Source of the DNA: Patescibacteria group bacterium | Lineage (GTDB): Bacteria > Patescibacteriota > Patescibacteriia > UBA1558 > GWA2-36-10 | Assembly (NCBI GenBank): GCA_041662585.1 | Contig: JBAZSG010000004.1 | Location: 18,173 to 82,172 of the forward strand | Direction of reading: 5' to 3' | DNA length: 64,000 nt | Part shown: positions 3,751-20,238 of the stretch, in pieces | Position numbering within the stretch: the stretch's first letter is position 1 | Layout: every line of letters starts with the position of its first letter | Made by a program: the position numbers and the translations under genes | Notes under the pieces: generated by a model | Seen by the model: the letters and a program-made list of their open reading frames with translations, nothing else | What the model was told of the DNA's origin: nothing | Databases searched by the model: none

Positions 3751-5265
3751 ATGAATTTTTTGCATAATAAAAATATAGTAAAAATAAAAAAAGCTTACGC
3801 AAGATTCAAGGCCCCATATAGACAAAAGCTTGAAGAGGAATATTATGAATATTTTAGCTATTTGTTTACTAGGGCATTCGAAGTTGGAGGAGTATCATAT
3901 TTGTTTGCTTTATTAAGAGTATCTGGAATGCAATCTGCTGGCTGGGACTCATTTATAGAATCAGACGAAGCATTAAAAGACTATTCAAAGATTTTAAGAA
4001 AAACTAAAAAGAATAGCAAAAAAGTTGATAAGCTATCATTTAGACTAGCTTTATTGATGTATAGTCATGCTACAGAAATGTCGGCGCCTTATGAAATTAT
4101 TTCAAATCTTATTAACTGTATCGCTAATAAACCATATTTAATTAGACCATTTTGTGAATTTGAAAAAAATCGCAGAGAACCATTACATCCAAAAAGTAAA
4201 ATTGAACATATTAAAAATAAAGCCAGAGCAATTGGAGAAAATAAGTTACCAAACATCTTATTTGGCTTTTTTAATGAAGATATTAGAAATGCTTTCTATC
4301 ATTCAGATTACACAATTACAGAAAATGAATTTAGAATTACAAGAGAAGATGAAATACCAAAATCTATTAAACTTGAAGAGGTCTCTGATAAATTAACTCG
4401 TTGTTTTGCATTTTATTCTGCTTTTTTTACTGCATATAAGAATGCAAGAGCTACATTTAATAAAATGCCTAGGAATTATTTTAAATGGCCAGATTTTGAA
4501 GTTTTTGAATTAGTAAAAAATAAAAAAACAGGCTTAGTTGGATTTAAGATACACCATTCTACAGGCACAGTGTCGAGTTTTAATCGCTTAGATGATGGTT
4601 CGGTAGATGCTATGAATCTTATATTTTCTCCAAATGGTCAAATTGGACTACAGATAGGTAATTTAGATGAACGTAAAGATAAATGGCTTGTAGATGGTGA
4701 AGAATTTTTTGAATACGGTACGAGATATAATGGATCCAATAAATGGCAGCCAATAGTTTTTAAAGGTGATCCTGATATAGTTTCTAAAAAAGTAAGGGCA
4801 TTAGATACGAGTGAAGATATACAAGGGATATTATTTTATGTGGAATGCACTGGTTATAAAGCGATAGAATTTGTTATCAAAAGTGATAAAAAGCTTTTTC
4901 GTGGAAAAAATTATAGTACCCCAAAGTTTGGCAACTTAGAAAAAATATTAATTGAGGAATTCAAGTCTACTGATTCTACAACGTATATTTATGATGGCAC
5001 GGTATACCTTAAAGATGCTAGTATTGGAAATATAAAAAATAATTTGGATAGAATTAAAAAAATTGAAAATAAATTTAAAAAGAAAAACCAAGACATAAAT
5101 ATTATGTTAAAATATTCAATTTATGGTGGGGCGGGTGTACAAAAAAATGATAATGGTACAATATCGATAAGTTTTAGCATGTCTAATCCTAGAAATACTA
5201 TGGTAGTTTCAGATTTATCAATCTTACCTTCTTCTGATTGGACAATAAAAGAAGAATGGATATAA
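3751..5265 (+). CDS. Hypothetical protein, 504 aa, no recognisable motif
   Basis: Long uninterrupted ORF with AT-rich codon usage matching the host. No catalytic or nucleotide-binding motif recognised by eye. Lies between typA and tRNA-Leu at the edge of a defence-type island. Confidence 0.5.
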   Translation: MNFLHNKNIVKIKKAYARFKAPYRQKLEEEYYEYFSYLFTRAFEVGGVSYLFALLRVSGMQSAGWDSFIESDEALKDYSKILRKTKKNSKKVDKLSFRLALLMYSHATEMSAPYEIISNLINCIANKPYLIRPFCEFEKNRREPLHPKSKIEHIKNKARAIGENKLPNILFGFFNEDIRNAFYHSDYTITENEFRITREDEIPKSIKLEEVSDKLTRCFAFYSAFFTAYKNARATFNKMPRNYFKWPDFEVFELVKNKKTGLVGFKIHHSTGTVSSFNRLDDGSVDAMNLIFSPNGQIGLQIGNLDERKDKWLVDGEEFFEYGTRYNGSNKWQPIVFKGDPDIVSKKVRALDTSEDIQGILFYVECTGYKAIEFVIKSDKKLFRGKNYSTPKFGNLEKILIEEFKSTDSTTYIYDGTVYLKDASIGNIKNNLDRIKKIENKFKKKNQDINIMLKYSIYGGAGVQKNDNGTISISFSMSNPRNTMVVSDLSILPSSDWTIKEEWI

Positions 5266-5284: not shown

Positions 5285-5371
5285 GGAGAGTTGGCAGAGT
5301 GGTCTATTGCGGCGGTTTTAAAAACCGAAGGCCCTTTTTAGGGCTCAAGGGTTCGAATCCCTTACTCTCCG
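5285..5371 (+). tRNA. tRNA-Leu(TAA), type II with long variable arm
   Basis: Acceptor GGAGAGT/ACTCTCC, D-stem GCA/TGC, anticodon loop TTTAAAA (anticodon TAA), variable arm GGCCC...GGGCT, T-arm AAGGG-TTCGAAT-CCCTT; 87 nt, CCA not encoded. Confidence 0.85.
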
Positions 5372-5377
5372 AATGCC

Positions 5378-6235
5378 ATGTTTGAAGCTTTTCATATATA
5401 TAAATATATGGGTGATTTAGATGAATACACATTAAACATCTATACTGATGGCTCAGGTAAATGGCATCCAATGAGAGGAGGTGTTGGAGTTGTATTTGTG
5501 TTTCCAGAAATATGTAAACGAGATTTGATATTAAAAGAATTACAAAGATATTCGGGTGCAAATATTGCCCAGATGGAATTACAAGCTTGTTTAGTTGGGC
5601 TAAAAGAGATATTAAAGTTTAATGATTTGGAAGGTGTCCAGGCTATTACCTTTTGGGTGGATCGTCAAGAAATCCCTGATAATTATACAAAAGCTATTTA
5701 TGTTTGGCCAAATTCTAAACCACCGTGGTACAGATCTAATGGTGCCCCTGTAATGAATGCTCAGCTTTGGAAAGACCTAGTTAGAGAAATGAATAAGGTA
5801 TATAATAATTTTCATATTAGAGTGACATTTAAATGGATAAAAGGACATGATGGGCATGAATTTAATTCTATAGCTAATAGGTTGGCAAAGTCATCAGCCG
5901 ATAAACCGGTTCAAAAGCCTATTATGAAAATATCGGAAGTTAATGTTAGAAAAAAATTATTTGATAATAAAGTAAAAAGAGGTTCTGTTAAGATGAATGG
6001 TCAAAAGATAATTATCAGGATAACTACGGGAGAATTATTGCCTCAGAAAATATGGAAGTATCAATATGAAGTTTTGTCTGAAAAAAGTCAATTTTATAAA
6101 CTTTCAGATATAATTTATTTTTCAGAAAATTTAAGAGCAGGACATGTGTTTGAAATAACTTGTAATAAAAATCAAAATTTTCCACAAATATCAAAAATTA
6201 TAAGAGAACTAGATAAAGAGTTATATAAAAAATAG
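5378..6235 (+). CDS. RNase HI-domain protein (N-terminal ~165 aa) with a ~115-aa C-terminal extension of unknown function
   Basis: RNase H type-1 signatures: IYTDGSG...GGVGVV (catalytic Asp), ELQA (Glu), WVDRQ (Asp), FKWIKGHDGHEFNSIANRLA (His; final Asp replaced by Asn). Starts 6 nt after tRNA-Leu. Confidence 0.6.
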   Translation: MFEAFHIYKYMGDLDEYTLNIYTDGSGKWHPMRGGVGVVFVFPEICKRDLILKELQRYSGANIAQMELQACLVGLKEILKFNDLEGVQAITFWVDRQEIPDNYTKAIYVWPNSKPPWYRSNGAPVMNAQLWKDLVREMNKVYNNFHIRVTFKWIKGHDGHEFNSIANRLAKSSADKPVQKPIMKISEVNVRKKLFDNKVKRGSVKMNGQKIIIRITTGELLPQKIWKYQYEVLSEKSQFYKLSDIIYFSENLRAGHVFEITCNKNQNFPQISKIIRELDKELYKK

Positions 6236-6271
6236 CTTGATTTTTTAGCTAGAAAATGGGAAAATGTAGCT

Positions 6272-7057
6272 ATGATTAAACCATATTATGTTAAGCCAAA
6301 GTTCAGATTATATCATGCCAACGCGCTTGATTTTTTAGCCAATGTAAAACCAAATTCAGTAGATATGATTTTTGCTGATCCCCCATATAATTTATCAAAC
6401 GGAGGCTTCACTGTGCATGCTGGAAAAATGACGTCTGTAAACAAAGGAGATTGGGATAAAAGTAAAGGATTTGAAGGGGATTATGATTTTCATCATAAAT
6501 GGCTCGAAGCTTGTAAGAGAGTCTTAAAACCAAACGGTACACTTTGGGTAAGTGGAACTTATCATTCTATATATCAGTGTGGACACGCTTTACAGTCTTT
6601 GGGCTATCACATATTAAATGATATAAGCTGGTTCAAACCAAACGCTTCACCAAATTTAAGCTGTCGTTTTTTCACGGCTAGTCACGAAACTTTAATTTGG
6701 GCTAGGAAAGATAAAAAGGGCAAACACACCTTTAATTATAAAGAAATGAAAGGTGGAAATTGGCATGAACAGGATTTGATTAAAAAACCTGATAAACAAA
6801 TGAGGTCTGTTTGGGGCATTATGACGCCTAGAAATGGAGAAAAAAAATTTGGTAAGCATCCTACTCAGAAGCCATTAGATTTATTAAATAGGATAGTACT
6901 AGCCAGTACCAATAAAGGGGATTTAATTTTAGATCCATTTGCTGGTAGTTCTACAACAGGTATATCTGCTTATGCATTAGGTAGAAAGTTTATTGGTATT
7001 GATATGGATAAGAAGTTTTTAGATTTATCTATTAAGAGGTTTGAAGATATAAAATAA
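6272..7057 (+). CDS. Beta-class N6-adenine (or N4-cytosine) DNA methyltransferase, DpnA/HinfI-like
   Basis: Motif IV DMIFADPPYN precedes motif I LDPFAGSSTTG (beta-class order); 261 aa; immediately upstream of a restriction endonuclease gene. Confidence 0.8.
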   Translation: MIKPYYVKPKFRLYHANALDFLANVKPNSVDMIFADPPYNLSNGGFTVHAGKMTSVNKGDWDKSKGFEGDYDFHHKWLEACKRVLKPNGTLWVSGTYHSIYQCGHALQSLGYHILNDISWFKPNASPNLSCRFFTASHETLIWARKDKKGKHTFNYKEMKGGNWHEQDLIKKPDKQMRSVWGIMTPRNGEKKFGKHPTQKPLDLLNRIVLASTNKGDLILDPFAGSSTTGISAYALGRKFIGIDMDKKFLDLSIKRFEDIK

Positions 7058-7061
7058 TAAT

Positions 7062-7943
7062 ATGGAAAAAGATTTTGATAAATTAATAAATACTTTTCAG
7101 GAATCAATTTTTACTTGGGGTTATTTTACTGATTTTGAAAAGGTTAATAAAAATATTAGCAAAATAGAAAGAAAATTAAATTTACTTAATTCTTTAATTG
7201 GCAAAGACAATATTGAAAATGAGTTTATAGATTTAATTAAGGAATATCCAGAGGTAAAAGAAGTACTGCCAATTTTAATTGCAGTTAGAAAAGACAAGTT
7301 AAAAGAATTGTCTATTATTTCTGATATTATTAATTTAGATCATGATAAAAAATATGATATTTTTTATGAAGGCTTAAACGAAGAAAATGCAAAAGAATTA
7401 AAAATATTTTTTAATGAAAGTGGACTAAAAGACATTTTTAAAAATAAGAATATAAAAAATGTGGTTGATTATGTTTTTGGTATAGAAGTAGGAATGGATA
7501 CTAACGCTAGAAAAAACAGAACAGGAGATTTAATGGAAGATTTAGTAGAAAAATTTTTAGAGATATTTTGTAAAGATAAAAATTTTGTTTTTATTGAGCA
7601 AGCTACTAAGGTTAAAATTAAAAAAGCGTTTAATTATGATTTAGAAATTGATAAGAATAATAGAAGATTTGATTTTGCTTTATTTAATAAAGAAGAAAAA
7701 AAGCTATATTTAATGGAAGTTAATTATTATGGAGGAGGAGGTTCTAAATTAAAAGCAACTGCTGGTGAATATCAAAAATTAAATGATTTTTTAAAAAATC
7801 AAAATATAACATTTATTTGGGTTACAGACGGCAAAGGCTGGTTAACATCAAGAAATTCTTTAAAAGAGACTTTTAAGCATAATGATTATGTGATTAATTT
7901 GGAAATGCTTAAAAATGGAAGCTTAAAAACTATAGTAAAGTAA
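7062..7943 (+). CDS. Type II restriction endonuclease, DpnII/MboI family (predicted GATC specificity)
   Basis: 293 aa; blocks DYVFGIEVGMDTNARKNRTGDLMEDLV and EVNYYGGGGSKLKATA resemble what I recall of DpnII-family conserved regions; gene is 4 nt downstream of the DPPY methyltransferase. Specificity is inference. Confidence 0.6.
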   Translation: MEKDFDKLINTFQESIFTWGYFTDFEKVNKNISKIERKLNLLNSLIGKDNIENEFIDLIKEYPEVKEVLPILIAVRKDKLKELSIISDIINLDHDKKYDIFYEGLNEENAKELKIFFNESGLKDIFKNKNIKNVVDYVFGIEVGMDTNARKNRTGDLMEDLVEKFLEIFCKDKNFVFIEQATKVKIKKAFNYDLEIDKNNRRFDFALFNKEEKKLYLMEVNYYGGGGSKLKATAGEYQKLNDFLKNQNITFIWVTDGKGWLTSRNSLKETFKHNDYVINLEMLKNGSLKTIVK

Positions 7944-7947
7944 TAAT

Positions 7948-9591
7948 ATGGAAAAATTACTTAGTAAAGAAATAGTTAGTTTTCTAATAAATAAAGAAAT
8001 AGATATTGCTAAAAAAATTCGTAAAGACAATAGAGTTTCTAAGAGTTCGAACGAAGCTTATGCCTTTATAATATCAGTATTAAGAAAAACAATTTCTGAG
8101 TCTATAACAGAAAGTAAGTTAAAAGAAATTATATTTGATGGTAAGGATGAATGTGGTTTTGATGTTATTAATATAACACCAAGAAGGATAGAGATTTATG
8201 ATTTTAAAGATACTAATTCATCATTTTCTGAACATGAAGTCTATCCGTTTTTAGAAAAAATATTAAATTTTATATTTAAAGAAGAGACACTTCCTAGTAA
8301 GATGTCTTTTTTAGTAAAAAATAGAATTAAACAAATCATAAAAATAATAGATTCTAAAAAAATAAAAGTGAGAATATATTTTGTCAGAAATGGTTTTAAT
8401 AATCCAGAAGATTGGCTTATAGCTGGCGCTAATAAAAAAATTAAGAAAGAAAATATAGAAATAAAGTATATTAATCAAAAGGATATAATTTCTGATGTTT
8501 ATGAAAATAATCAAGTGCAGGATTTAGAATTTAATTTTAATGTTGATAAGAATAATTTAGAAGATTATTTCTTATATAAACATAGTAAAATTTTAATAAC
8601 AAGAGTCAATATAAAATATTTATTAAAAGGGTTAGTTAAGGAGTCTAATTTAAAAAATTATAATTTATACCATGATAATGTGAGAGGATTTTTAGGTAAA
8701 AAAGAACCTTCCAAGGGGATGCTAGTTACAATCAAAGATTATAAAAAAGATTTTCACCTTTTTCATAACGGAATAACTTTAGCTTGTCAAAAAATTAAAA
8801 ATGTTAGAGTGCTGGGGGGCAGTTTTGCTGTAACTAATCCACAAGTTTTAAATGGTTGTCAAACTTTAGAAACTTTGTATGAAAAATATTTAGATAATCT
8901 AGATGATAAATTATTAGAGGAGGCTAGTATATTGTGTCGTTTTTTTGTATTAGATTCTAAAAAAGCATTAAAAGTATGTCAATCTTCTAATACTCAAAAT
9001 AAAATTGATTCGTGGGAATTAAGGTCTAATGATAAGGAGCAAAAATTAATTGAGTATTATTTAAATAATACTTTAAAACAAAACTTTGAGTATAAAAGAA
9101 AAAGCGGAAAAAGCAAAAGTGGTAATGTATCTTTACCAGAGTTAGGCCAATGGTTGTATGCAGCAATTTTTGAAAAACCAGCTGAAGCCAAGAATAAGAA
9201 AACAGAAATTTTTCAAATAGATATTGATAAATCAATTTATGAACAAATATATCAAACATCAAAAGTAAAACCAGTAGATTTGATTAGGATTTGTGAAATA
9301 GGAGTTTTTTTGAAAAAGGCTAAAAAAGAGAAAGAGGTTATTAAGAGAACGGAGATCAAGGGTCTAGATAAGGAGACAGAGTTATCTTTAATTCGTAGTG
9401 CAGATTTTCATATACTTTCATCTTTTTACTATACAAAAAATAAATTGAATGACGAAAATTTACAAGCTTTAGTTAATAAAATATATAAGGTAGTTAAGAA
9501 AATTCAAAAAGAAAAAGAAGGTGACTATGATATAAAGAGAATTTTTACTCAAGATTTAACAACCTGGAGTAAAATAAAGAAAATTTTATAA
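7948..9591 (+). CDS. AIPR-family abortive-infection protein (phage resistance)
   Basis: 547 aa; central FHNGITLACQ...VTNPQVLNGCQTLETL block matches the AIPR family as I recall it; located directly after the R-M pair. Confidence 0.55.
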   Translation: MEKLLSKEIVSFLINKEIDIAKKIRKDNRVSKSSNEAYAFIISVLRKTISESITESKLKEIIFDGKDECGFDVINITPRRIEIYDFKDTNSSFSEHEVYPFLEKILNFIFKEETLPSKMSFLVKNRIKQIIKIIDSKKIKVRIYFVRNGFNNPEDWLIAGANKKIKKENIEIKYINQKDIISDVYENNQVQDLEFNFNVDKNNLEDYFLYKHSKILITRVNIKYLLKGLVKESNLKNYNLYHDNVRGFLGKKEPSKGMLVTIKDYKKDFHLFHNGITLACQKIKNVRVLGGSFAVTNPQVLNGCQTLETLYEKYLDNLDDKLLEEASILCRFFVLDSKKALKVCQSSNTQNKIDSWELRSNDKEQKLIEYYLNNTLKQNFEYKRKSGKSKSGNVSLPELGQWLYAAIFEKPAEAKNKKTEIFQIDIDKSIYEQIYQTSKVKPVDLIRICEIGVFLKKAKKEKEVIKRTEIKGLDKETELSLIRSADFHILSSFYYTKNKLNDENLQALVNKIYKVVKKIQKEKEGDYDIKRIFTQDLTTWSKIKKIL

Positions 9592-9619
9592 AATAAAGCA
9601 CTGAAATCAAACCAAGCTT

Positions 9620-9678
9620 AAATCAAAAAACTAAGTAATGTATTAACCCCCGCGAAAGCGGGGGTTTTTAAAAAGACA
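9620..9678 (+). repeat. 57-bp direct repeat, copy 1 (contains a Rho-independent terminator hairpin)
   Basis: aaatcaaaaaactaagTaatgtattaAcccccgcgaaagcgggggttttTaaaaagaca; near-identical to 10337..10393. Confidence 0.8.
9647..9670 (+). terminator. Rho-independent terminator (CCCCCGC-GAAA-GCGGGGG + T5) after the AIPR gene
   Basis: 7-bp GC stem, GNRA tetraloop, T-run, seen directly. Confidence 0.8.
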
Positions 9679-9770
9679 AGGTGAATCGCGAAGCGAGGGA
9701 GGGTGGCCTGGGCCATGTAAATAAATAAGGATTTTTGATATAATGGATATATAAAATTTAAATTCAATTT

Positions 9771-10325
9771 ATGAAAAAAGTACAGCAAATAAAAAATTTA
9801 ATTAAAAATGAATGTGCCAAAGGGCCAATAGATGATTGGTTTTACTCAACATACTTATTGGGTGTAGAAAAATTTGCCAAATGGCTACTAGCTAGACTAC
9901 CAAAAGCAAACAAAGAAGTAGTCATGCTAGGAGTTTGGCTTCATGATTTACAGAGGATAAAAGGCATCAAAGGCAATCATCAAGAAGTGGGCGCTAAGGA
10001 AGCCGAAAAAGTAATGATAAAATTTGCTTATGATAATAAAACAATTAATCAAGTAAAAAATATAATCCTTAGTCATTCTTGTAGTAGTAAAAAGCCAAAT
10101 ACTTTGGAAGGAAAGATTTTGGCTAGTGCCGATGCCATGTCTCATTATCATAATGATTTTTTCTTACAAATTGCTGTAACTGGTCAAAGAAATTTAGAAG
10201 AATATAAAAAATGGGTATTAGAAAAATTAAATAGAAATTATAATGTAAAAATTTGTTTTCCTTTTGCCAAAAAATCTATAAAGGCAAGGCATGATTTATT
10301 TAAAAAGGTTTTTACCATGAAGTAG
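9771..10325 (+). CDS. Hypothetical protein, weak HD-phosphohydrolase-like motifs
   Basis: 184 aa; WLHDLQR (HD dyad), LSHSC, SADAMSHY present but no upstream motif-I His found; bracketed by the 57-bp direct repeats. Confidence 0.3.
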   Translation: MKKVQQIKNLIKNECAKGPIDDWFYSTYLLGVEKFAKWLLARLPKANKEVVMLGVWLHDLQRIKGIKGNHQEVGAKEAEKVMIKFAYDNKTINQVKNIILSHSCSSKKPNTLEGKILASADAMSHYHNDFFLQIAVTGQRNLEEYKKWVLEKLNRNYNVKICFPFAKKSIKARHDLFKKVFTMK

Positions 10326-10336
10326 TAAATAGATTT

Positions 10337-10393
10337 AAATCAAAAAACTAAGCAATGTATTACCCCCGCGAAAGCGGGGGTTTTAAAAAAGAC
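10337..10393 (+). repeat. 57-bp direct repeat, copy 2 (with terminator hairpin)
   Basis: aaatcaaaaaactaagCaatgtattacccccgcgaaagcgggggttttaaaaaagaca; followed by a second hairpin cacccga...tcgggtg (10393..10414). Confidence 0.8.
10363..10384 (+). terminator. Rho-independent terminator (second copy of the CCCCCGC-GAAA-GCGGGGG hairpin)
   Basis: Same stem-loop plus T-run. Confidence 0.75.
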
Positions 10394-10429
10394 ACCCGAT
10401 ACGCCACTCGGGTGTTGTTTCTTTATTTG

Positions 10430-10927
10430 ATGGTTTTTTGGTATAATAACTCTATGGAAAATCAAAATAAACCCTACAATCCAGCCAATGATTCAATAAA
10501 ACAACTTTGGACATACGATAAACGTCTAGATAGATATTTAGTAATTTTACAGACAGTCTTTACGCTGACTTTTTCATACAGGGCTCATATTTGGGGTTTA
10601 TTTGTGTTTATAGCTTTTGTATGTTTTTTCTTAGTTCCTCTTATCTACTTCAGTAAATTTGCTAAGGGGTGGTTCTTAAACAAAAAACTTTATGAGCTTG
10701 TAAGAGAACAAAAAATACCAGCCTGGATTCCAAGAAGGCGTATAAGAACTTGGGTTATCTGGCTTATAATTGGAAATCCAGTTACATGGATGTTTTTTGC
10801 AGCTACGGTTGCTACAGCTTCGCAGGCATTACCAATCTTTGTGTCATTAATTTTAGCTATACCTTGGTATTTACTTGAACGTTTGCATAAGAAAGAAGAG
10901 CCTTATCTTGCACCTTATATAAAATAA
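10430..10927 (+). CDS. Hypothetical membrane protein
   Basis: Hydrophobic helices (LFVFIAFVCFFLVPLIYF, VIWLIIGNPVTWMFFAATVA). The track ORF begins at 10355 inside the repeat/terminator, so the start was moved to the in-frame ATG at 10430. Confidence 0.45.
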   Translation: MVFWYNNSMENQNKPYNPANDSIKQLWTYDKRLDRYLVILQTVFTLTFSYRAHIWGLFVFIAFVCFFLVPLIYFSKFAKGWFLNKKLYELVREQKIPAWIPRRRIRTWVIWLIIGNPVTWMFFAATVATASQALPIFVSLILAIPWYLLERLHKKEEPYLAPYIK

Positions 10928-10943
10928 ACTTAAAAATAAAATT

Positions 10944-11417
10944 ATGAAAGTAAAACCAATAAAACTATCAGCAGCTATACTAATGTCTTTAGCCGCTGGA
11001 GCTATAGGCTCAGCCTTTACTTTTACCGGCATAGATTCTTGGTATCAATATCTCAACAAACCAAGCTTCAATCCACCTTCTTGGATATTTGGTCCAGTCT
11101 GGACCACACTATATATTTTGATGGGTATAGCTTTGTATTTGATTTGGCAAGAAGGACTTAAAAAAGCCTTTGTTAAAAACTCTTTTATATTGTTTATAGT
11201 CAATCTAGTTTTAAATTCTCTCTGGTCTATTACTTTCTTTGGTTTACAAAATCCAGCTTTGGCATTTTTGGTGATTGTCTTGCTCTGGATTACTATCTTG
11301 GTACTTATCATTCGTTTCTATAGGATAAACAAACTAGCATCTTATCTACTGATACCATATCTATTATGGGTTAGTTTTGCTAGTGTGTTAAATTTTAGTA
11401 TTTGGCAGTTGAATTAA
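10944..11417 (+). CDS. tspO: TspO/MBR family tryptophan-rich membrane protein, paralog 1
   Basis: 157 aa; five TM helices, Trp-rich, FNPPSWIFGPVWTTLYILMGIALYLIW signature. Confidence 0.8.
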   Translation: MKVKPIKLSAAILMSLAAGAIGSAFTFTGIDSWYQYLNKPSFNPPSWIFGPVWTTLYILMGIALYLIWQEGLKKAFVKNSFILFIVNLVLNSLWSITFFGLQNPALAFLVIVLLWITILVLIIRFYRINKLASYLLIPYLLWVSFASVLNFSIWQLN

Positions 11418-11452
11418 TAATTATACTAATAATCATAGATAAAATGCAGCAA

Positions 11453-11606
11453 TAAAATAGCCTAAAGTATAGGGTTTTTATGTATTTTTATTAAAAATGC
11501 AGCAATTCGCTTGAAAAAATGACGCAATGAAATAGCTTAAAATATGGGGTTTTTATATATTTTTATTAAAAATGACGCAATTCGCTTGAAAAAATGACGC
11601 AATGAT
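11453..11606 (+). repeat. Two tandem ~77-bp direct repeats upstream of the Fic-family gene (possible operator or promoter array)
   Basis: Unit aaatagcYtaaaRtatRgggtttttatRtatttttattaaaaatgMMgcaattcgcttgaaaaaatgacgcaatg present twice at ~90% identity. Contains five copies of an AATGNNGCAAT-like motif (aatgcagcaat / aatgacgcaat). Confidence 0.8.
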
Positions 11607-12712: not shown

Positions 12713-12739
12713 AAACTACTCTAGTGAGTAGTTTTTTGA
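12713..12739 (+). terminator. Rho-independent terminator hairpin X (AAAACTACTC-tagt-GAGTAGTTTT + T-run), copy 1
   Basis: Perfect 10-bp stem; a near-identical copy lies at 17114..17140. Confidence 0.75.
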
Positions 12740-12751
12740 TATAATAACCAT

Positions 12752-13197
12752 ATGAACAAACTATGTCCTATAACAAAACCATATAAGACAGCTAAGCTAA
12801 AGGTATCTAAATTACACACTCTTTATTATGAGCAAGTAGGTAATCCACAAGGAGTGCCTCTGGTATATTTACTATGAGTAAATGGGAATTAGATTGGTTG
12901 CATAATGATAAGGCTAAGATGTTTTATCCTGATGCTTGGCAAGTATATTCTGCTGGTCTAAAGAAAAATCAAACAAGTAATTTGATAGAGGTATTTTATA
13001 AGAAAGTATTTTCAAAAGTTATAATCCAAGGACGTTATGATATGATTTGTCCACCTATTACTGCTTGGAAGCTTCATGAGACTTGGACAAAGGCAGATTT
13101 TGAGATGATAGAAGCTTCAGGGCATCATTCTAGTGAAAAGAATAATATAGATGTTATTATAAAATATACTAATAAGATGTTGAGATATAAAATTTAA
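12752..13197 (+). pseudogene. pip: Proline iminopeptidase (pip) remnant: N-terminal 41 codons and C-terminal ~107 codons joined with a frameshift; ~190 internal codons deleted
   Basis: 12752..12877 encodes MNKLCPITKPYKTAKLKVSKLHTLYYEQVGNPQGVPLVYLL*, the start of the Pip N-terminal signature, but it stops before the GGPG motif. 12874..13197 (other frame) encodes IQGRYDMICPPITAWKLHETWTKADFEMIEASGHHS, a Pip C-terminal signature. Confidence 0.6.
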
Positions 13198-16200: not shown

Positions 16201-16623
16201 CCTCGCCAAATGTCAAATTTTGAAAATAGTCAGGAAATAGATATTTATTTATGGGATGATAAGCAAGGCTCCGAGTTATTTCTTTATTCTTTTGTAAGAT
16301 TTGGGGACTTATCTAGGATTACTAAAAATACATTTTCAAGTAATGATTCTATAGGTACATGGCAATTACCTTTTGCGAATAGGCAATCTTCAATGACTCT
16401 ACCAAGTATGTATGTTCAGCCAATGTGTTCAGATGGTACAGCCTATAATAAGTGCAATGATAGTGCTCAATATTGTGATGAAGGTCGGCTTATATCACGT
16501 TGTGATTTATGTAATAAAGGTTGTTTAGATGGTTATGATTGTATATCAGGCCAATGTTGTCAGAAAATAGAAGGTCAATATGAGTGTGATATAGCCACAG
16601 AGCAGTTTGATTTAAAATATTAA
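13207..16623 (+). CDS. Secreted, membrane-anchored subtilisin-like (S8) serine protease with a Ca-binding Asp-rich insert, FG-GAP/VCBS beta-propeller repeats and a Cys-rich C-terminus
   Basis: 1138 aa; N-terminal TM/signal; Asp (DINAPEAWD), His (HGMGVHGL) and Ser (GGTSGATPVVAG) catalytic motifs; DDDGDGLIDEDRLDNEPGD insert; repeated GDINGDGxDEI, FDINNDGTNEILF, DDLDGDGINDILY; C-terminal CSDGTAYNKCNDSAQYCDEGRLISRCDLCNKGC. Confidence 0.8.
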   Translation: MYKTQTLTKTSVSIKEKIAIGVGLLAISFIGFNFIFSLFGEVLEPVKKIVISKPQTIVNNNVYSIYPVFEKKYVEDEIIIKIADKVSKETIESVIMTDLTNLSPKQINFSLSETDKESVLLKPVFSHFKNKELGFKYDLDKFYYIKNLSTDEDQLIKDLQKTNNYEYVGRLVEPQTFFTPNDTFYNKQWFLNNTGQSDLINYVPPAISGFDINAPEAWDTTQGSSDIIIAFNELTQPNHPDLVNNMWVNDDAPGDKNSDGCPGVCGIDDDGDGLIDEDRLDNEPGDMGYLNDLVNDDDENGYPDDIHGWNFTTNSGDVYSEYAQHGMGVHGLLAAQGNNSLGVSGVCPQCKVMSIGSEWGAESIIAAPVYAVDNGARILSMSYLTTDDPALHAAVQYAYEAGLLMFGASGNSNISTEALYPTFYSEVLAITAADQFGWKAPWSVFGPKTELMAPGSEILSTTVNDQYAYFGGTSGATPVVAGIAGLVFSANPLLTAHDVKNILRTTAQPYKSWFYAGVGMVDTEAAVQLAQYSNTPRVEINDPLQSTVIANSDTSYNIRGSANGDKFVSYDLVYGRGMFPSDWTYIVQSSNNQVADNVLGIFDVSSVGAGYYTVELRVTSSDGIEYTDKIVLYKQHAFDQSWPIELSAGGLKESLGIFDILDDNNPEFLVADYDSNNIEIYSINGSLVTSTDIDSAVINSPTFVVQGDVTCDGNKDTIVVTKKNWPSIPLIYIYDKSGNKIREFEVPGITILSYNFSNVALGDINGDGCDEIVIKTAESILVVDGNGINLGSKDYSLLQMGSPAIFDINNDGTNEILFSSNEGIDCLTYSNSALSMCPGQWPYYIDGYPGVATIVVDLDSDNVFEIVNFAFSIQILELNGTLINDIQIPRLIPTMGNNETFITGFAIGDINNDQQYEIIFTRDSRFGNVMNGEEQNIYAYTLQGALIDGWPQKSEASGNSKVAIRIDDLDGDGINDILYEQNNRIFAFHGDGSVVNSFPRQMSNFENSQEIDIYLWDDKQGSELFLYSFVRFGDLSRITKNTFSSNDSIGTWQLPFANRQSSMTLPSMYVQPMCSDGTAYNKCNDSAQYCDEGRLISRCDLCNKGCLDGYDCISGQCCQKIEGQYECDIATEQFDLKY

Positions 16624-16632
16624 ATTAAAAAT

Positions 16633-17100
16633 ATGAAAATAATAAAACTATCAGCAGCTATACTAATGTCTCTAGCCGCTGGAGCTATAGGTTCAGCCTT
16701 TACTTTTACAGGAATAGATTCTTGGTATCAATATCTCAACAAACCAAGCTTCAATCCACCTTCTTGGATATTTGGTCCAGTCTGGACCACACTATATATT
16801 TTGATGGGTATAGCTTTGTATTTGATTTGGCAAGAAGGACTTAAAAAAGCCTTTGTCAAAAACTCTTTTATATTGTTTGTAGTCAATCTAGTCTTAAATT
16901 CTCTCTGGTCTATTGCTTTCTTTGGTTTACAAAATCCAGCTTTGGCATTTTTGGTGATTGTCTTACTATGGGTTAGTATATTAGTACTTATCATTCGTTT
17001 CTATAGGATAAATAAACTAGCTTCTTATCTACTAATACCATATCTACTATGGGTTAGTTTTGCTAGTGTTTTAAACTTTAGTATTTGGCAGTTGAATTAA
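16633..17100 (+). CDS. tspO: TspO/MBR family protein, paralog 2 (~96% nucleotide identity to 10944..11417)
   Basis: 155 aa, near-identical protein; the DNA repeat runs from ~16643 to the stop. Confidence 0.8.
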   Translation: MKIIKLSAAILMSLAAGAIGSAFTFTGIDSWYQYLNKPSFNPPSWIFGPVWTTLYILMGIALYLIWQEGLKKAFVKNSFILFVVNLVLNSLWSIAFFGLQNPALAFLVIVLLWVSILVLIIRFYRINKLASYLLIPYLLWVSFASVLNFSIWQLN

Positions 17101-17217: not shown

Positions 17218-17637
17218 CTAGCCTTCGGACTGCTTGACGGCGTCGAACTCGATCTCGACCAGAGCATCGAAGGGGAGCCAGGAGACACCGAAGGCCTTGC
17301 GCCTGGGCCTCACGACGGAGGTGTTGACTCCGAAGGAGACCTTCCAGCAATCGTTGAGGCAGGCGTAGTCCCGGGGGTAGTTGTCGCTGACGATCATGAC
17401 CGTCGCCGAGTGGACGTCGTCCGGCGTCAGACCGACAGCGATGAGCTGGTCGGCCATCTTCTGCAGTACCTCGACGACCTGCTCCTGGAAGTTGCCGTTG
17501 GACTTCAGCCGGCCGTTCTCGACGATGCCTATGGTGCCGGAGAAGTGGAAGTGGTTACCGACCTGCACGCAGGTTGAGTAGGGTTGACCCGGAGCTTCCA
17601 TATTGGCTATGGCAGCTGGCTTGGTTTTTTGGGGCAT
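17218..17637 (-). CDS. ridA: RidA/YjgF/TdcF-family enamine/imine deaminase, compositionally foreign (~64% GC)
   Basis: 139 aa from the ATG at 17637, preceded by AGGAGGT; YjgF signature (PAAIANMEAPGQPYSTCVQVGNHFHFSGTIG...VVRPRRKAFGVSWLPFDALVEIEFDA); GC-rich sequence matches the ORF extent (~17195..17640). The track's longer start at 17724 is unlikely. Confidence 0.8.
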   Translation of the reverse strand: MPQKTKPAAIANMEAPGQPYSTCVQVGNHFHFSGTIGIVENGRLKSNGNFQEQVVEVLQKMADQLIAVGLTPDDVHSATVMIVSDNYPRDYACLNDCWKVSFGVNTSVVRPRRKAFGVSWLPFDALVEIEFDAVKQSEG

Positions 17638-17742
17638 GAAATACCTCCTATAGTGTACAGGTTTTGTCTGCTGGGCAGACGTTGGTTGATGGATAAAGTT
17701 ATAATAAATAACTATTTTTGTCAATAATTGTTTTAAATAAAA

Positions 17743-17908: not shown

Positions 17909-18643
17909 ATGCCATACAAATTTGATATAAATGAAACTGCTGATATTTTGGGAGTCAATCCTTATACTTTACGTAGATGGGATAATAAAAAAATACTTAA
18001 AGCTAATAGAGATAGCGAAAAAGGACATCGTTATTATTTTGAAGATGATATAGAAATTTTTTTATCTAATAATTATAAGTATCTTTTAAAAATTGCCAAT
18101 AAATGGTCTCTTTCAAAGGAATCTATAAAAATACCATCTAGGTTCTATTGTGAAGATGCTTTTGTATTTAAGTCTCGTTTATCTAGATTTGCAGAAACTT
18201 TAAAGAGAGATGGTGTTCTTGGAGATTCTTTTTCACTGGTCACTTCTGTTGTAGGTGAAATTGGCAATAATTCATTTGATCATAATATTGGTAATTGGCC
18301 AGACATACCTGGAATATTTTTTGGATATAGTCTAAAAGAGCGTAAAATTATTTTAGCTGATAGAGGAAGAGGTGTGCTCACTACATTACAAAAAATTAGG
18401 CCAGAATTAGCCAATGATAAAGATGCTTTAAAAATAGCATTTACAGAAGTAGTGACCGGTAGATATCCAGAGAATAGAGGTAATGGATTGAAGTATGTCA
18501 AAAAAATAGTACAGAATAATAATATGTTTTTATGGTTTCATTCAGGGCAAAATGCTATTGTGCTAAAAAGTAAATCATCAGATTTGATAAATATAGACCT
18601 AGAGAAATATATGAGGGGGTGTTTTGTTATATTAGAATATTAA
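17909..18643 (+). CDS. MerR-type HTH DNA-binding domain fused to a GHKL (RsbW-like) ATPase/kinase domain
   Basis: 244 aa; N-terminal TADILGVNPYTLRRWDNKKIL...GHRYY (MerR HTH); C-terminal N-box EIGNNSFDH, G1 box DRGRGV, G2 box GNGLKYV. Confidence 0.65.
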   Translation: MPYKFDINETADILGVNPYTLRRWDNKKILKANRDSEKGHRYYFEDDIEIFLSNNYKYLLKIANKWSLSKESIKIPSRFYCEDAFVFKSRLSRFAETLKRDGVLGDSFSLVTSVVGEIGNNSFDHNIGNWPDIPGIFFGYSLKERKIILADRGRGVLTTLQKIRPELANDKDALKIAFTEVVTGRYPENRGNGLKYVKKIVQNNNMFLWFHSGQNAIVLKSKSSDLINIDLEKYMRGCFVILEY

Positions 18644-18984: not shown

Positions 18985-20238
18985 CTAACTCTTACTACTA
19001 GCTTCACCAGCTAGTCGTCCAGTCGCCCAAGCTGCTTGGAGATTGAAGCCACCGGTATAGCCATCAATATCTAGTATCTCTCCAGCAAAATACAAGTTGG
19101 GACAAAGCTTTGATTCCATAGTACTAGGGTTTATCTCTTTTAAAGACACGCCACCAGCAGTGACAAACTCATCGCCAGCTCGACGACTTACTATCGTCAA
19201 GGGTATATTTTTTAACCAAGTACTGACAGCTTGAAATTCTGCTTTGCTTATTTCAGCATTTTTCTTTTGACCGTCTATAGCCAGTTGGGCTAGGAGGACA
19301 GTGGCTAGTGATAGTGGTATTACTTTGCGGATACTATGCTTAAATATTTTTTTGGGCTCAGCTTGAGCAAAGTTTTTTAATTTTTCTTTCAAGTCTTCCA
19401 GAGATAAGTCTGGAAATAGGTCTATAGATACTTTTAGAGGCTTAGTTTCGCTAAAATTTTCAAAAGCAATCAGTGATGACAGAGCAAAGACAGCTGGTCC
19501 ACTGATACCCCAGTGAGTAAAGAGAAAAGGACCAGAAAATTCATGTTTCTTTTTGGTATTAGCTTTTAATTTGGCATTTAGAAAAGACAGACCAGATACA
19601 TCACTAGGCCAAGTTTCTTTGGTGGTCAGTGAGCTGAGACTAGGGGCTAAGTTGCTGATAGTATGTCCTAGGCTTTCGGCTAGAGCGTAGCCATCACCAG
19701 TAGAGCCAGTGTGTCTGTAGGCTTGACCGCCCAAGGTCAAAATGACTTTGTCAGTAGTGAGTGCTTGGTGATTTTTAAAGTGAATAGTAAATTGTTTTTT
19801 ATTTTTTTCAATTTTTGTAACAGAGTGTTTGAGTAATATTTTTTGCTTGTCACTAGATAATATATTTTCAAAGACTCTGACTATATCTTGACCATTATTG
19901 GACACGGGAAAGACTCGCATATCAGCTTCGCATTTTAGAGCTACGCCGTGATTTTCAAACCAATCTTTTACTTCTCTAGGTGGGAAAGCATACATAGCTG
20001 AATTTAAAAATTTATTACCTCGTGGATATTTTTCTAGCACAGTTTTGATATCTTCAATGCCAGTAGTGACATTGCACCGGCCACCACCCGAGATGATTAC
20101 TTTTTTTCCTAGTGAGTCATTTCGCTCAATCAAAAAAACTTCCATTTCTGGATTGTTTTTCACTATAGTAGCGGCACACATCATGCCAGCTGCTCCACCA
20201 CCGATTACTGCTATACGCATAAAATTTATTTTATGCAT
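18985..20238 (-). CDS. HI0933/BaiN-family FAD-dependent oxidoreductase (aminoacetone oxidase-like flavoprotein)
   Basis: GGGAAGMMCA dinucleotide-binding motif, GGGRCNVT, C-terminal TGGFNLQAAWATG. Confidence 0.8.
   Translation of the reverse strand: MHKINFMRIAVIGGGAAGMMCAATIVKNNPEMEVFLIERNDSLGKKVIISGGGRCNVTTGIEDIKTVLEKYPRGNKFLNSAMYAFPPREVKDWFENHGVALKCEADMRVFPVSNNGQDIVRVFENILSSDKQKILLKHSVTKIEKNKKQFTIHFKNHQALTTDKVILTLGGQAYRHTGSTGDGYALAESLGHTISNLAPSLSSLTTKETWPSDVSGLSFLNAKLKANTKKKHEFSGPFLFTHWGISGPAVFALSSLIAFENFSETKPLKVSIDLFPDLSLEDLKEKLKNFAQAEPKKIFKHSIRKVIPLSLATVLLAQLAIDGQKKNAEISKAEFQAVSTWLKNIPLTIVSRRAGDEFVTAGGVSLKEINPSTMESKLCPNLYFAGEILDIDGYTGGFNLQAAWATGRLAGEASSKS

Follow-up and report, generated by a model that had tools for sequence, protein, structure and literature searches.

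Restriction at GATC by enzymes of the DpnII family is known from the dpnMAB system of Streptococcus pneumoniae, which combines a double-stranded DNA methylase (DpnM), a single-stranded DNA (ssDNA) methylase (DpnA) and a nuclease for unmethylated GATC (DpnB) (PMC3812788). LlaDCHI, the restriction-modification (R-M) system of pSRQ700 in Lactococcus lactis, is related to DpnII and has GmATC methylation (PMC6458302; PMC4132740). R-M operons commonly encode an AIPR protein as well, and AbiU1/AIPR proteins are frequently R-M associated (PMC2292703, PMC3506569); lactococcal AbiU delays phage transcription, gives modest protection and is nuclease-like (PMC13064643). Here, we describe a locus of a Patescibacteria group bacterium, of the candidate phyla radiation (CPR), in which an R-M pair of the DpnII type and an AIPR gene stand together behind a tRNA-Leu(TAA) gene and a gene for an RNase HI-domain protein. 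The window, meaning the whole stretch that was analysed and to which coordinates refer, is 64,000 nt long (assembly GCA_041662585.1, contig JBAZSG010000004.1, positions 18,173 to 82,172). With a probability of about 0.6, we read the region as a cassette of a DpnII/LlaDCHI-type R-M pair and an AIPR gene in a recombination hotspot of a Patescibacteria chromosome, and we do not count the RNase H gene among its specific components. The cassette itself offers little new biology, being the same combination of GATC restriction and AIPR in CPR as in cultivated bacteria.

Five genes follow the tRNA-Leu(TAA) gene (5285-5371; called by ARAGORN and by Rfam tRNA at 56.4 bits) on the same, forward strand, just as the initial annotation had placed them. 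Their open reading frames (ORFs), which encode an RNase H protein (5378-6235), a methyltransferase (6272-7057), an endonuclease (7062-7943), an AIPR protein (7948-9591) and an HD-domain protein (9771-10325), all score far over the Pfam cut-offs. Spacers of 4 to 36 nt had been given for the whole series; this holds for the first four genes, which are separated by 36, 4 and 4 nt, but not for the HD gene, which is preceded by 179 nt. The methyltransferase covers the full Pfam profile N6_N4_Mtase (5.8e-60), matches the PADLOC model MTase_II (7.6e-98) and shares 53% identity along its entire length with LlaDCHI-B, the beta methyltransferase of pSRQ700 (E value, 3e-98). Its motifs stand in the beta-class order, with FADPPY at residues 34-39 preceding DPFAGSSTTG at residues 221-230, so that the beta-class DPPY enzyme called earlier can be read directly from the translation, as an N6-adenine DNA methyltransferase of the DpnA/LlaDCHI-B type. 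The endonuclease, encoded 4 nt downstream, was likewise recognized correctly as DpnII-like: it matches Pfam DpnII (PF04556) at 1.7e-95 over essentially its full length (residues 4-289 of 293; 320 bits against a cut-off of 23) and PADLOC REase_II at 8.4e-99, and it is 42% identical to R.LlaDCHI of pSRQ700 (E value, 1e-72).

The window enzyme thus belongs to the same endonuclease family as those of dpnMAB and LlaDCHI, and the cassette resembles LlaDCHI in that the methyltransferase gene comes before the endonuclease gene at a distance of 4 nt. The classical systems, however, have two methyltransferases, a Dam-like one (DpnM or LlaDCHI-A) and a second one (DpnA or LlaDCHI-B) (PMC3812788), whereas here the DpnA type stands alone. 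Among the ORFs and Pfam matches between 5.3 and 9.6 kb, there is a single beta-class methyltransferase gene and no second methyltransferase gene of any kind. A DpnII-type variant with one methyltransferase exists on pYP14d, but there the sole enzyme is Dam-like. Moreover, the window cassette, unlike classical DpnII and LlaDCHI, adds an AIPR gene and is preceded by the RNase H gene. We note that a classical cassette is found on another CPR contig (L049, 12070-15850), which encodes a Dam-like D12 methyltransferase, a 184-residue protein without an assignment, a DpnII nuclease, small ORFs resembling helix-turn-helix (HTH) proteins and a further methyltransferase. Both DpnII architectures therefore exist within CPR.

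The target of the pair would be GATC. That tetranucleotide is depleted in the window, with 121 occurrences against 204 expected (observed-to-expected ratio [O/E], 0.59; z, -7.1), and only one other 4-bp palindrome is avoided more strongly, while GANTC occurs at expectation. By analogy with the pneumococcal and lactococcal enzymes, the DpnA-type beta-class methyltransferase would mark GATC as self by N6-adenine methylation (m6A), and the DpnII-family endonuclease would cut incoming DNA in which GATC is unmethylated. As separate observations on composition, TCGA is strongly avoided in the window (O/E, 0.49), a possible sign that restriction of the TaqI type has exerted a second pressure, and CTAG is enriched (O/E, 1.41; z, +7.4). 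Enrichment of CTAG is unusual for bacteria.

The AIPR gene begins 4 nt behind the endonuclease gene, and its position immediately 3' of an R-M pair is an arrangement that has already been published. The protein matches Pfam PF10592 at 1.8e-29 (103.8 bits against a cut-off of 25), PADLOC AbiU at 1e-30 and PHROG 1841, "Abi alpha-like," at 1.3e-40. These full-length matches agree with the original assignment, as does the NGCQT block that is legible in the translation. With E values of about 1e-30, it is a distant member of the AIPR/AbiU1 family; no domain was recognized in its N-terminal 240 residues, and no relative was found in the PDB. An abortive-infection phenotype is known only for lactococcal AbiU. 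We suggest that it could serve as a second-line effector, predicted to be nuclease-like, that acts by abortive infection. In Pfam and PADLOC alike, then, profile searches find the R-M and AIPR homology on which the idea of a defence cassette depends.

How far the transcription unit extends is suggested by two repeats, which the initial annotation had described as 57-bp direct repeats around the HD gene. The pair is real, with copies of 61 nt (9618-9678) and 60 nt (10335-10394) that agree at 58 of 61 positions (95%) with one 1-nt gap, and the window contains exactly these two sites where none is expected by chance. The repeats are not, however, a signature of mobility. Each consists of CCCCCGC-GAAA-GCGGGGG followed by a run of T, with a folding energy of -20.2 kcal/mol (z, -5.0), and the downstream copy is joined by a second hairpin (10391-10416), with which it folds at -32.8 kcal/mol (z, -4.9), such that a double terminator is predicted across 10335-10416. 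Judged by their folds, the repeats are duplicated intrinsic terminators, one of which ends the unit from RNase H to AIPR and the other the HD gene. Transcription of the upstream unit would end within the first copy, at 9647-9670. We also considered whether the repeat is a dispersed element and rejected this, as the window holds two copies and related loci hold none, apart from an identical contig (L081) and an unrelated hairpin (L235).

The 179-nt gap ahead of the HD gene holds both the first terminator and an extended -10 promoter element, TGATATAAT, that was read directly at 9736-9744, and the HD gene is therefore taken to be a separate transcription unit. Its product, an HD-domain phosphohydrolase, matches Pfam PF01966 at 1e-8 (35.9 bits against a cut-off of 22), and the motif WLHDLQR is legible. 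The family is widespread in Patescibacteria, with at least 187 clusters of homologues at 58 to 96% identity, mostly 58 to 75%. A close relative, 96% identical in protein, is found on a contig (L245/L246) that shares 94% nucleotide identity with the window, and the homology is confined to 9724-10324, that is, to the HD promoter and coding sequence. Upstream of its HD gene, that contig carries the 3' end of a C5 cytosine methyltransferase gene and a gene for an Mrr_cat nuclease with a zinc ribbon, and neither copy of the terminator repeat is present. The HD gene had been counted as cargo of the island. Its wide conservation, its own promoter and the different R-M pair upstream of its relative indicate instead that it is a native, conserved Patescibacteria gene, an anchor beside a cassette that has been swapped. 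We considered whether the Mrr-type nuclease might be a methyl-dependent, "DpnI-like" complement and rejected the idea; because a C5 methyltransferase gene lies just upstream, the nuclease is read as a member of an ordinary R-M pair.

The promoter of the HD gene is one instance of a recurrent motif, TTTTTG(R)TATAAT, that is seen at 9732-9745, 10434-10449 and 12731-12747 of the window and at 1126-1138 of L245. It sits 5 to 26 nt upstream of start codons, and leaders in this lineage would therefore be very short. The position of the motif at 10434-10449 also implies that the true start of the next ORF (10355-10927) is the ATG at 10454.

Whether the block is an island was judged from sister genomes and from base composition. 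By its flanking TypA gene, the window belongs to Patescibacteria and is Parcubacteria/Komeilibacteria-like; identical DNA is present in an NCBI metagenome-assembled contig of 153 kb and in a Logan assembly. We compared 80 loci anchored on TypA, the closest of which (L001) has a TypA protein 90% identical to that of the window. In none of the 80 were homologues found of the RNase H, AIPR and HD genes, of an ORF for a 504-residue protein upstream of the tRNA gene or of the 190-codon ORF at 10355-10927, and relatives of the methyltransferase and the endonuclease occurred once each and unlinked (L055 and L049, respectively). The distance between TypA and an HI0933-like gene (18985-20238), whose L001 homologue is 78% identical, is 15.3 kb in the window and 2.6 kb in L001, with different cargo. 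Against a background of 35 genes with a mean GC content of 0.346 +/- 0.032, the endonuclease (0.227) and AIPR (0.246) genes lie 3 to 4 standard deviations (sd) below the mean, and the methyltransferase (0.340) and RNase H (0.307) genes do not; the values for the 504-residue ORF and the HD gene are 0.288 and 0.297. The block as a whole is neither syntenic in all relatives nor core-like in composition. Absence from sister loci, low GC content and the exchange of R-M pairs beside the HD gene together bear out the earlier view that the R-M pair and AIPR form a defence cassette in horizontally exchanged DNA.

How the cassette arrived is best approached through the slot beside the HD gene. As the initial annotation had remarked, there is no integrase and no att duplication to be seen. 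We found no integrase or transposase domain among ORFs of at least 120 codons, or in a 107-codon ORF, between 3.7 and 18.9 kb, and no second copy of the tRNA-Leu 3' end anywhere in the window. The slot holds alternative R-M cassettes, and for this reason we propose that cassettes are exchanged by homologous recombination through conserved flanks. Such recombinase-free acquisition or exchange is the most likely route given these sequences, and it is preferred to site-specific integration targeted to the tRNA gene. The situation resembles the pneumococcal exchange of DpnI and DpnII cassettes, and hotspots flanked by core genes, where alternative R-M systems likewise stand beside a conserved gene with no recombinase; here, by comparison, there is one alternative allele, on a contig of 1.9 kb (L245), and transformation as the route would be an extrapolation. 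In CPR bacteria, R-M cassettes would then replace one another at one fixed place in the chromosome with no recombinase involved, which fits a lifestyle based on DNA uptake. The TypA-adjacent slot of L001 (7440-9879) contains a 364-codon ATPase-like gene, a 244-codon gene and a 164-codon gene on the opposite strand, and no tRNA gene. If these are defence genes, the site would be a shared hotspot.

Why an RNase H gene stands ahead of the cassette is a separate question. The ORF opens at 5378, but the likely start is the ATG at 5408, which is the NCBI call, fits the alignment of homologues and leaves 36 nt to the tRNA-Leu gene; the resulting gene (5408-6235) encodes 275 residues. RNase H is called by PHROGs and by Pfam RNase_H (55 bits, 1.3e-14; residues 19-174 of the 285-residue reading). 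About 47 homologues cover 91 to 96% of the protein at 32 to 45% identity, and in their alignment D14, E57 and D85 are invariant, as are an R and a K (R-x-K) in the linker. The fourth acidic position is Asn here and Asp in most relatives. The D134N mutant of E. coli RNase HI retains activity. In an AlphaFold2 model (pLDDT, 84.9), the RNase HI domain is followed by a basic linker, which is disordered, and then by a barrel of five strands. In Foldseek, the first domain is closest to E. coli RNase HI (E value, about 1e-10; target TM score, 0.75 to 0.82), with which it shares the fold, the Trp-rich basic protrusion and the residues D14, E57 and D85. The barrel gives weak OB-like matches (best E value, 7.8e-3; TM score, about 0.45 to 0.5).

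Unlike E. coli RnhA, then, the window protein carries an extra module of about 110 residues, formed by the linker with its invariant R and K and by the barrel, and it belongs to a family that is rare and associated with mobile elements. The RNase H domain had been called correctly and the rest put at 115 residues. The C-terminal module has no sequence match in Pfam, PHROGs or the PDB. A profile built on its 110 residues retrieved 330 cluster representatives among 1.84 billion, and in essentially all near-full-length matches the module begins after about 160 to 180 residues; shorter matches are probably gene fragments. Against the NCBIfam rnhA equivalog NF001236, the protein scores 67.2 bits, under the cut-off of 160, and it matches no PADLOC model. 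A viral origin was considered and rejected: matches in IMG/VR cover the RNase H domain alone at 25 to 33% identity, and the two-domain form was not seen on the viral contigs. Known plasmids encode plain rnhA, and a search of the literature found nothing relevant on an RNase HI-OB family or on RNase HI linked to defence. The RNase HI core would most likely remove RNA from RNA:DNA hybrids, such as primers and R-loops, on an element or on incoming DNA, and the barrel and basic linker would add nucleic-acid binding.

The contexts of the family were surveyed at 12 independent loci, the window and 11 others; a metagenome scan based on the full-length alignment returned mostly generic RNase HI and two new loci of the family. 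One member lies 1.2 kb downstream of a tRNA-Leu(GAG) gene, with VirB11-like and TraG genes downstream (L082), another has ParA, ParB and TraG genes immediately upstream (L083/L084), and a third lies near TrbC and RadC genes (L239). Elsewhere the neighbours are IS66, a type IIG methyltransferase and a KAP NTPase (L088); LmuB, a SacI-type nuclease with a C5 methyltransferase, and an integrase (L240); an integrase fragment (L241); T5orf172 and a type III-like res/mod pair (L242); and an HsdR-like helicase-nuclease (L159). The remaining loci have sigma factor and HTH genes (L085), an M23 peptidase gene and many small ORFs (L087), or only genes without an assignment (L160). Counted by neighbour, TraG occurs at 3 loci, integrases number two and other R-M systems four, and the GC content of the loci ranges from 0.30 to 0.66. 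DpnII and AIPR never occur at the 11 other loci, and all-against-all clustering of neighbouring ORFs yielded no neighbour family common to the 12. Because DpnII and AIPR do not recur and no partner is shared, the RNase H gene is best read, as far as gene neighbourhoods can tell, as a stand-alone RNase HI variant that is horizontally mobile and belongs to mobile elements and defence hotspots.

This reading differs from that of the initial annotation, which took the RNase H gene for a possible functional part of the R-M/Abi (abortive infection) system, one that might, for example, sense or process RNA:DNA hybrids of an invader and couple them to restriction or to AIPR. We now consider such a role very improbable. 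The gene is on the same strand as the methyltransferase gene and 36 nt upstream of it, and the interval contains neither a terminator nor a convincing promoter, so that this gene and the R-M operon are probably transcribed together; the catalytic D, E and D of the protein are intact; but none of the 11 other loci has the same partners, the R-M genes that lie nearby elsewhere belong to unrelated types and are in most cases divergent or separated, DpnII systems without such a gene exist (pSRQ700, pYP14d and L049), and PADLOC does not recognize the protein. Perhaps instead it works alone in defence or anti-defence and is carried along in defence hotspots and mobile elements. In favour of this, the module is a single gene, patchily distributed over loci of very different GC content, and defence genes (several R-M types, LmuB, the KAP NTPase, the HsdR-like protein and MazE/PIN) lie within about 7 kb at about 7 of the 12 loci by raw count. 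Hallmarks of mobile elements are about equally frequent, however, and since defence genes cluster on mobile elements the link may be indirect; with no PADLOC match and the two-domain form not seen on viral contigs, a defence function of its own is unlikely. Slightly less likely still is a housekeeping RNase HI that happens to lie between the tRNA gene and an inserted R-M cassette. The E. coli-type fold with its basic protrusion would suit that role, no other RNase HI gene was found within the window, and the GC content is only 1.2 sd below background, but the family is rare, the gene is absent from the sister loci and lies in mobile-element contexts elsewhere, and the protein falls far short of the rnhA equivalog cut-off. 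Finally, the block might be a decayed integrative (conjugative or mobilizable) element at tRNA-Leu that has lost its integrase and transfer genes and retains the RNase H-OB gene as a relic of its backbone. One family member does lie downstream of tRNA-Leu(GAG) near VirB11-like and TraG genes (L082), and integrase or type IV secretion system (T4SS) genes flank the family at L083, L239, L240 and L241. Yet the 15-kb variable region and the rest of the window contain no integrase, T4SS gene or tRNA-derived repeat, a low-GC and possibly defence-linked gene upstream of the tRNA gene misfits insertion at a tRNA 3' end, and the cassette beside the HD gene of L245 was replaced without hallmarks of an element. 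We regard a decayed element as doubtful, if the least unlikely of these alternatives.

The reading of an exchanged R-M and AIPR cassette with a stand-alone RNase H gene has points against it as well. The 36-nt gap without a terminator between the RNase H and methyltransferase genes is what a functional operon would look like. R-M or other defence genes lie near about 7 of the 12 members of the RNase H family, so that a role related to defence is conceivable. The route of recombination is deduced from the lack of recombinases and from a single relative on a short contig, and synteny is poor even with the closest genome, such that the edges of the island are drawn from few comparisons. The closest solved structure of the methyltransferase is the catalytic domain of CcrM, which recognizes GANTC. 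Moreover, a 70%-identical methyltransferase (L055) has another small ORF as its partner, and the methyltransferase gene is near background in GC content, unlike the endonuclease gene. GATC is nevertheless favoured as the target, since it is GATC that is depleted and not GANTC. The strong difference in GC content between the two genes suggests, in turn, that the pair may be a recent assembly.

Where the locus could offer something new is limited to the RNase HI-OB-like family and to a second family, of about 500 residues, represented upstream of the tRNA gene and outside the coordinates of the initial annotation. The first has a fixed architecture and an unannotated C-terminal module and is repeatedly placed next to genes for T4SS, integrases and defence. 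To the second belongs the 504-residue protein (3751-5265, forward strand), in whose alignment R179-N180-x3-H184 is invariant. We note that the corresponding block, FRNDIRNAFYHSDY (R-N-x3-H), has a HEPN-like shape. The protein has no match in Pfam, PADLOC, PHROGs or NCBIfam, in a PDB profile search or on viral contigs, and its membership in a known family was rejected on that account. A homologue (L243/L244, 6001-7542) follows, on the same strand, genes for an N6_N4 methyltransferase, a 563-residue protein without an assignment, an AIPR protein and a PDDEXK_3 protein, and in both contexts seen the family lies within 5 kb of AIPR and N6_N4 methyltransferase genes. The 504-residue protein may, from this company, be a new Abi-type effector. 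If the gene is linked to defence, the tRNA-Leu gene lies inside variable DNA and not at its edge.

Either family could have a new mobile-element or defence function. That the RNase HI-OB family is an undescribed module of mobile elements and defence hotspots, or that the 504-residue protein is a new HEPN-like Abi effector, is a long shot, about on a par with the defence role weighed above for the RNase H gene. An RNase HI-OB protein may act on the RNA:DNA hybrids of ssDNA entering by conjugation or transformation, in the establishment of an element, in defence or in anti-defence. If so, its pairing with a DpnA-type methylase would be functionally meaningful, because pneumococcal DpnA methylates incoming ssDNA.

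Further traces of turnover are seen elsewhere in the variable region. A TspO gene occurs twice (10930-11417 and 16612-17100), and the copies share 94% identity over 489 bp of DNA and 96% identity in protein. They form direct repeats on either side of a 5.2-kb segment with a gene for an HTH-Fic protein (PADLOC SoFic, 1.5e-16), a prolyl-aminopeptidase fragment and a 1,138-codon S8 protease/FG-GAP gene. The segment looks like a single-crossover insertion, as circular DNA would leave, or like a recent segmental duplication. The fragment, the 107-codon ORF searched above for recombinase domains (12874-13197, forward strand), matches only the C-terminal end of prolyl aminopeptidase/alpha-beta hydrolase proteins and is a gene remnant, a sign of decay. 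Just upstream of the Fic gene, a 75-nt tandem duplication (11438-11603; 87% identical) contains three exact copies of AAAAATGACGCAAT and variants, which are possible operator sites for the HTH-Fic protein.

Toward the HI0933-like gene, a RidA/L-PSP gene on the reverse strand (17218-17724) has a GC content of 0.56, and of 0.76 at third codon positions, against 0.33 for the window. It was acquired very recently, from a donor of high GC content, and accounts for the spike in GC content at 17.0 to 17.75 kb. The next protein (17909-18643, forward strand) was considered as a recombinase, as PHROG matches are labelled "excisionase/transposase," and was rejected because only the HTH matches. It appears to be a MerR-type HTH (MerR/HTH_17), the one part that profile libraries recognize, fused to a domain whose motifs (GNNSFDH, DRGRG and GNGLKY) resemble those of GHKL ATPases.

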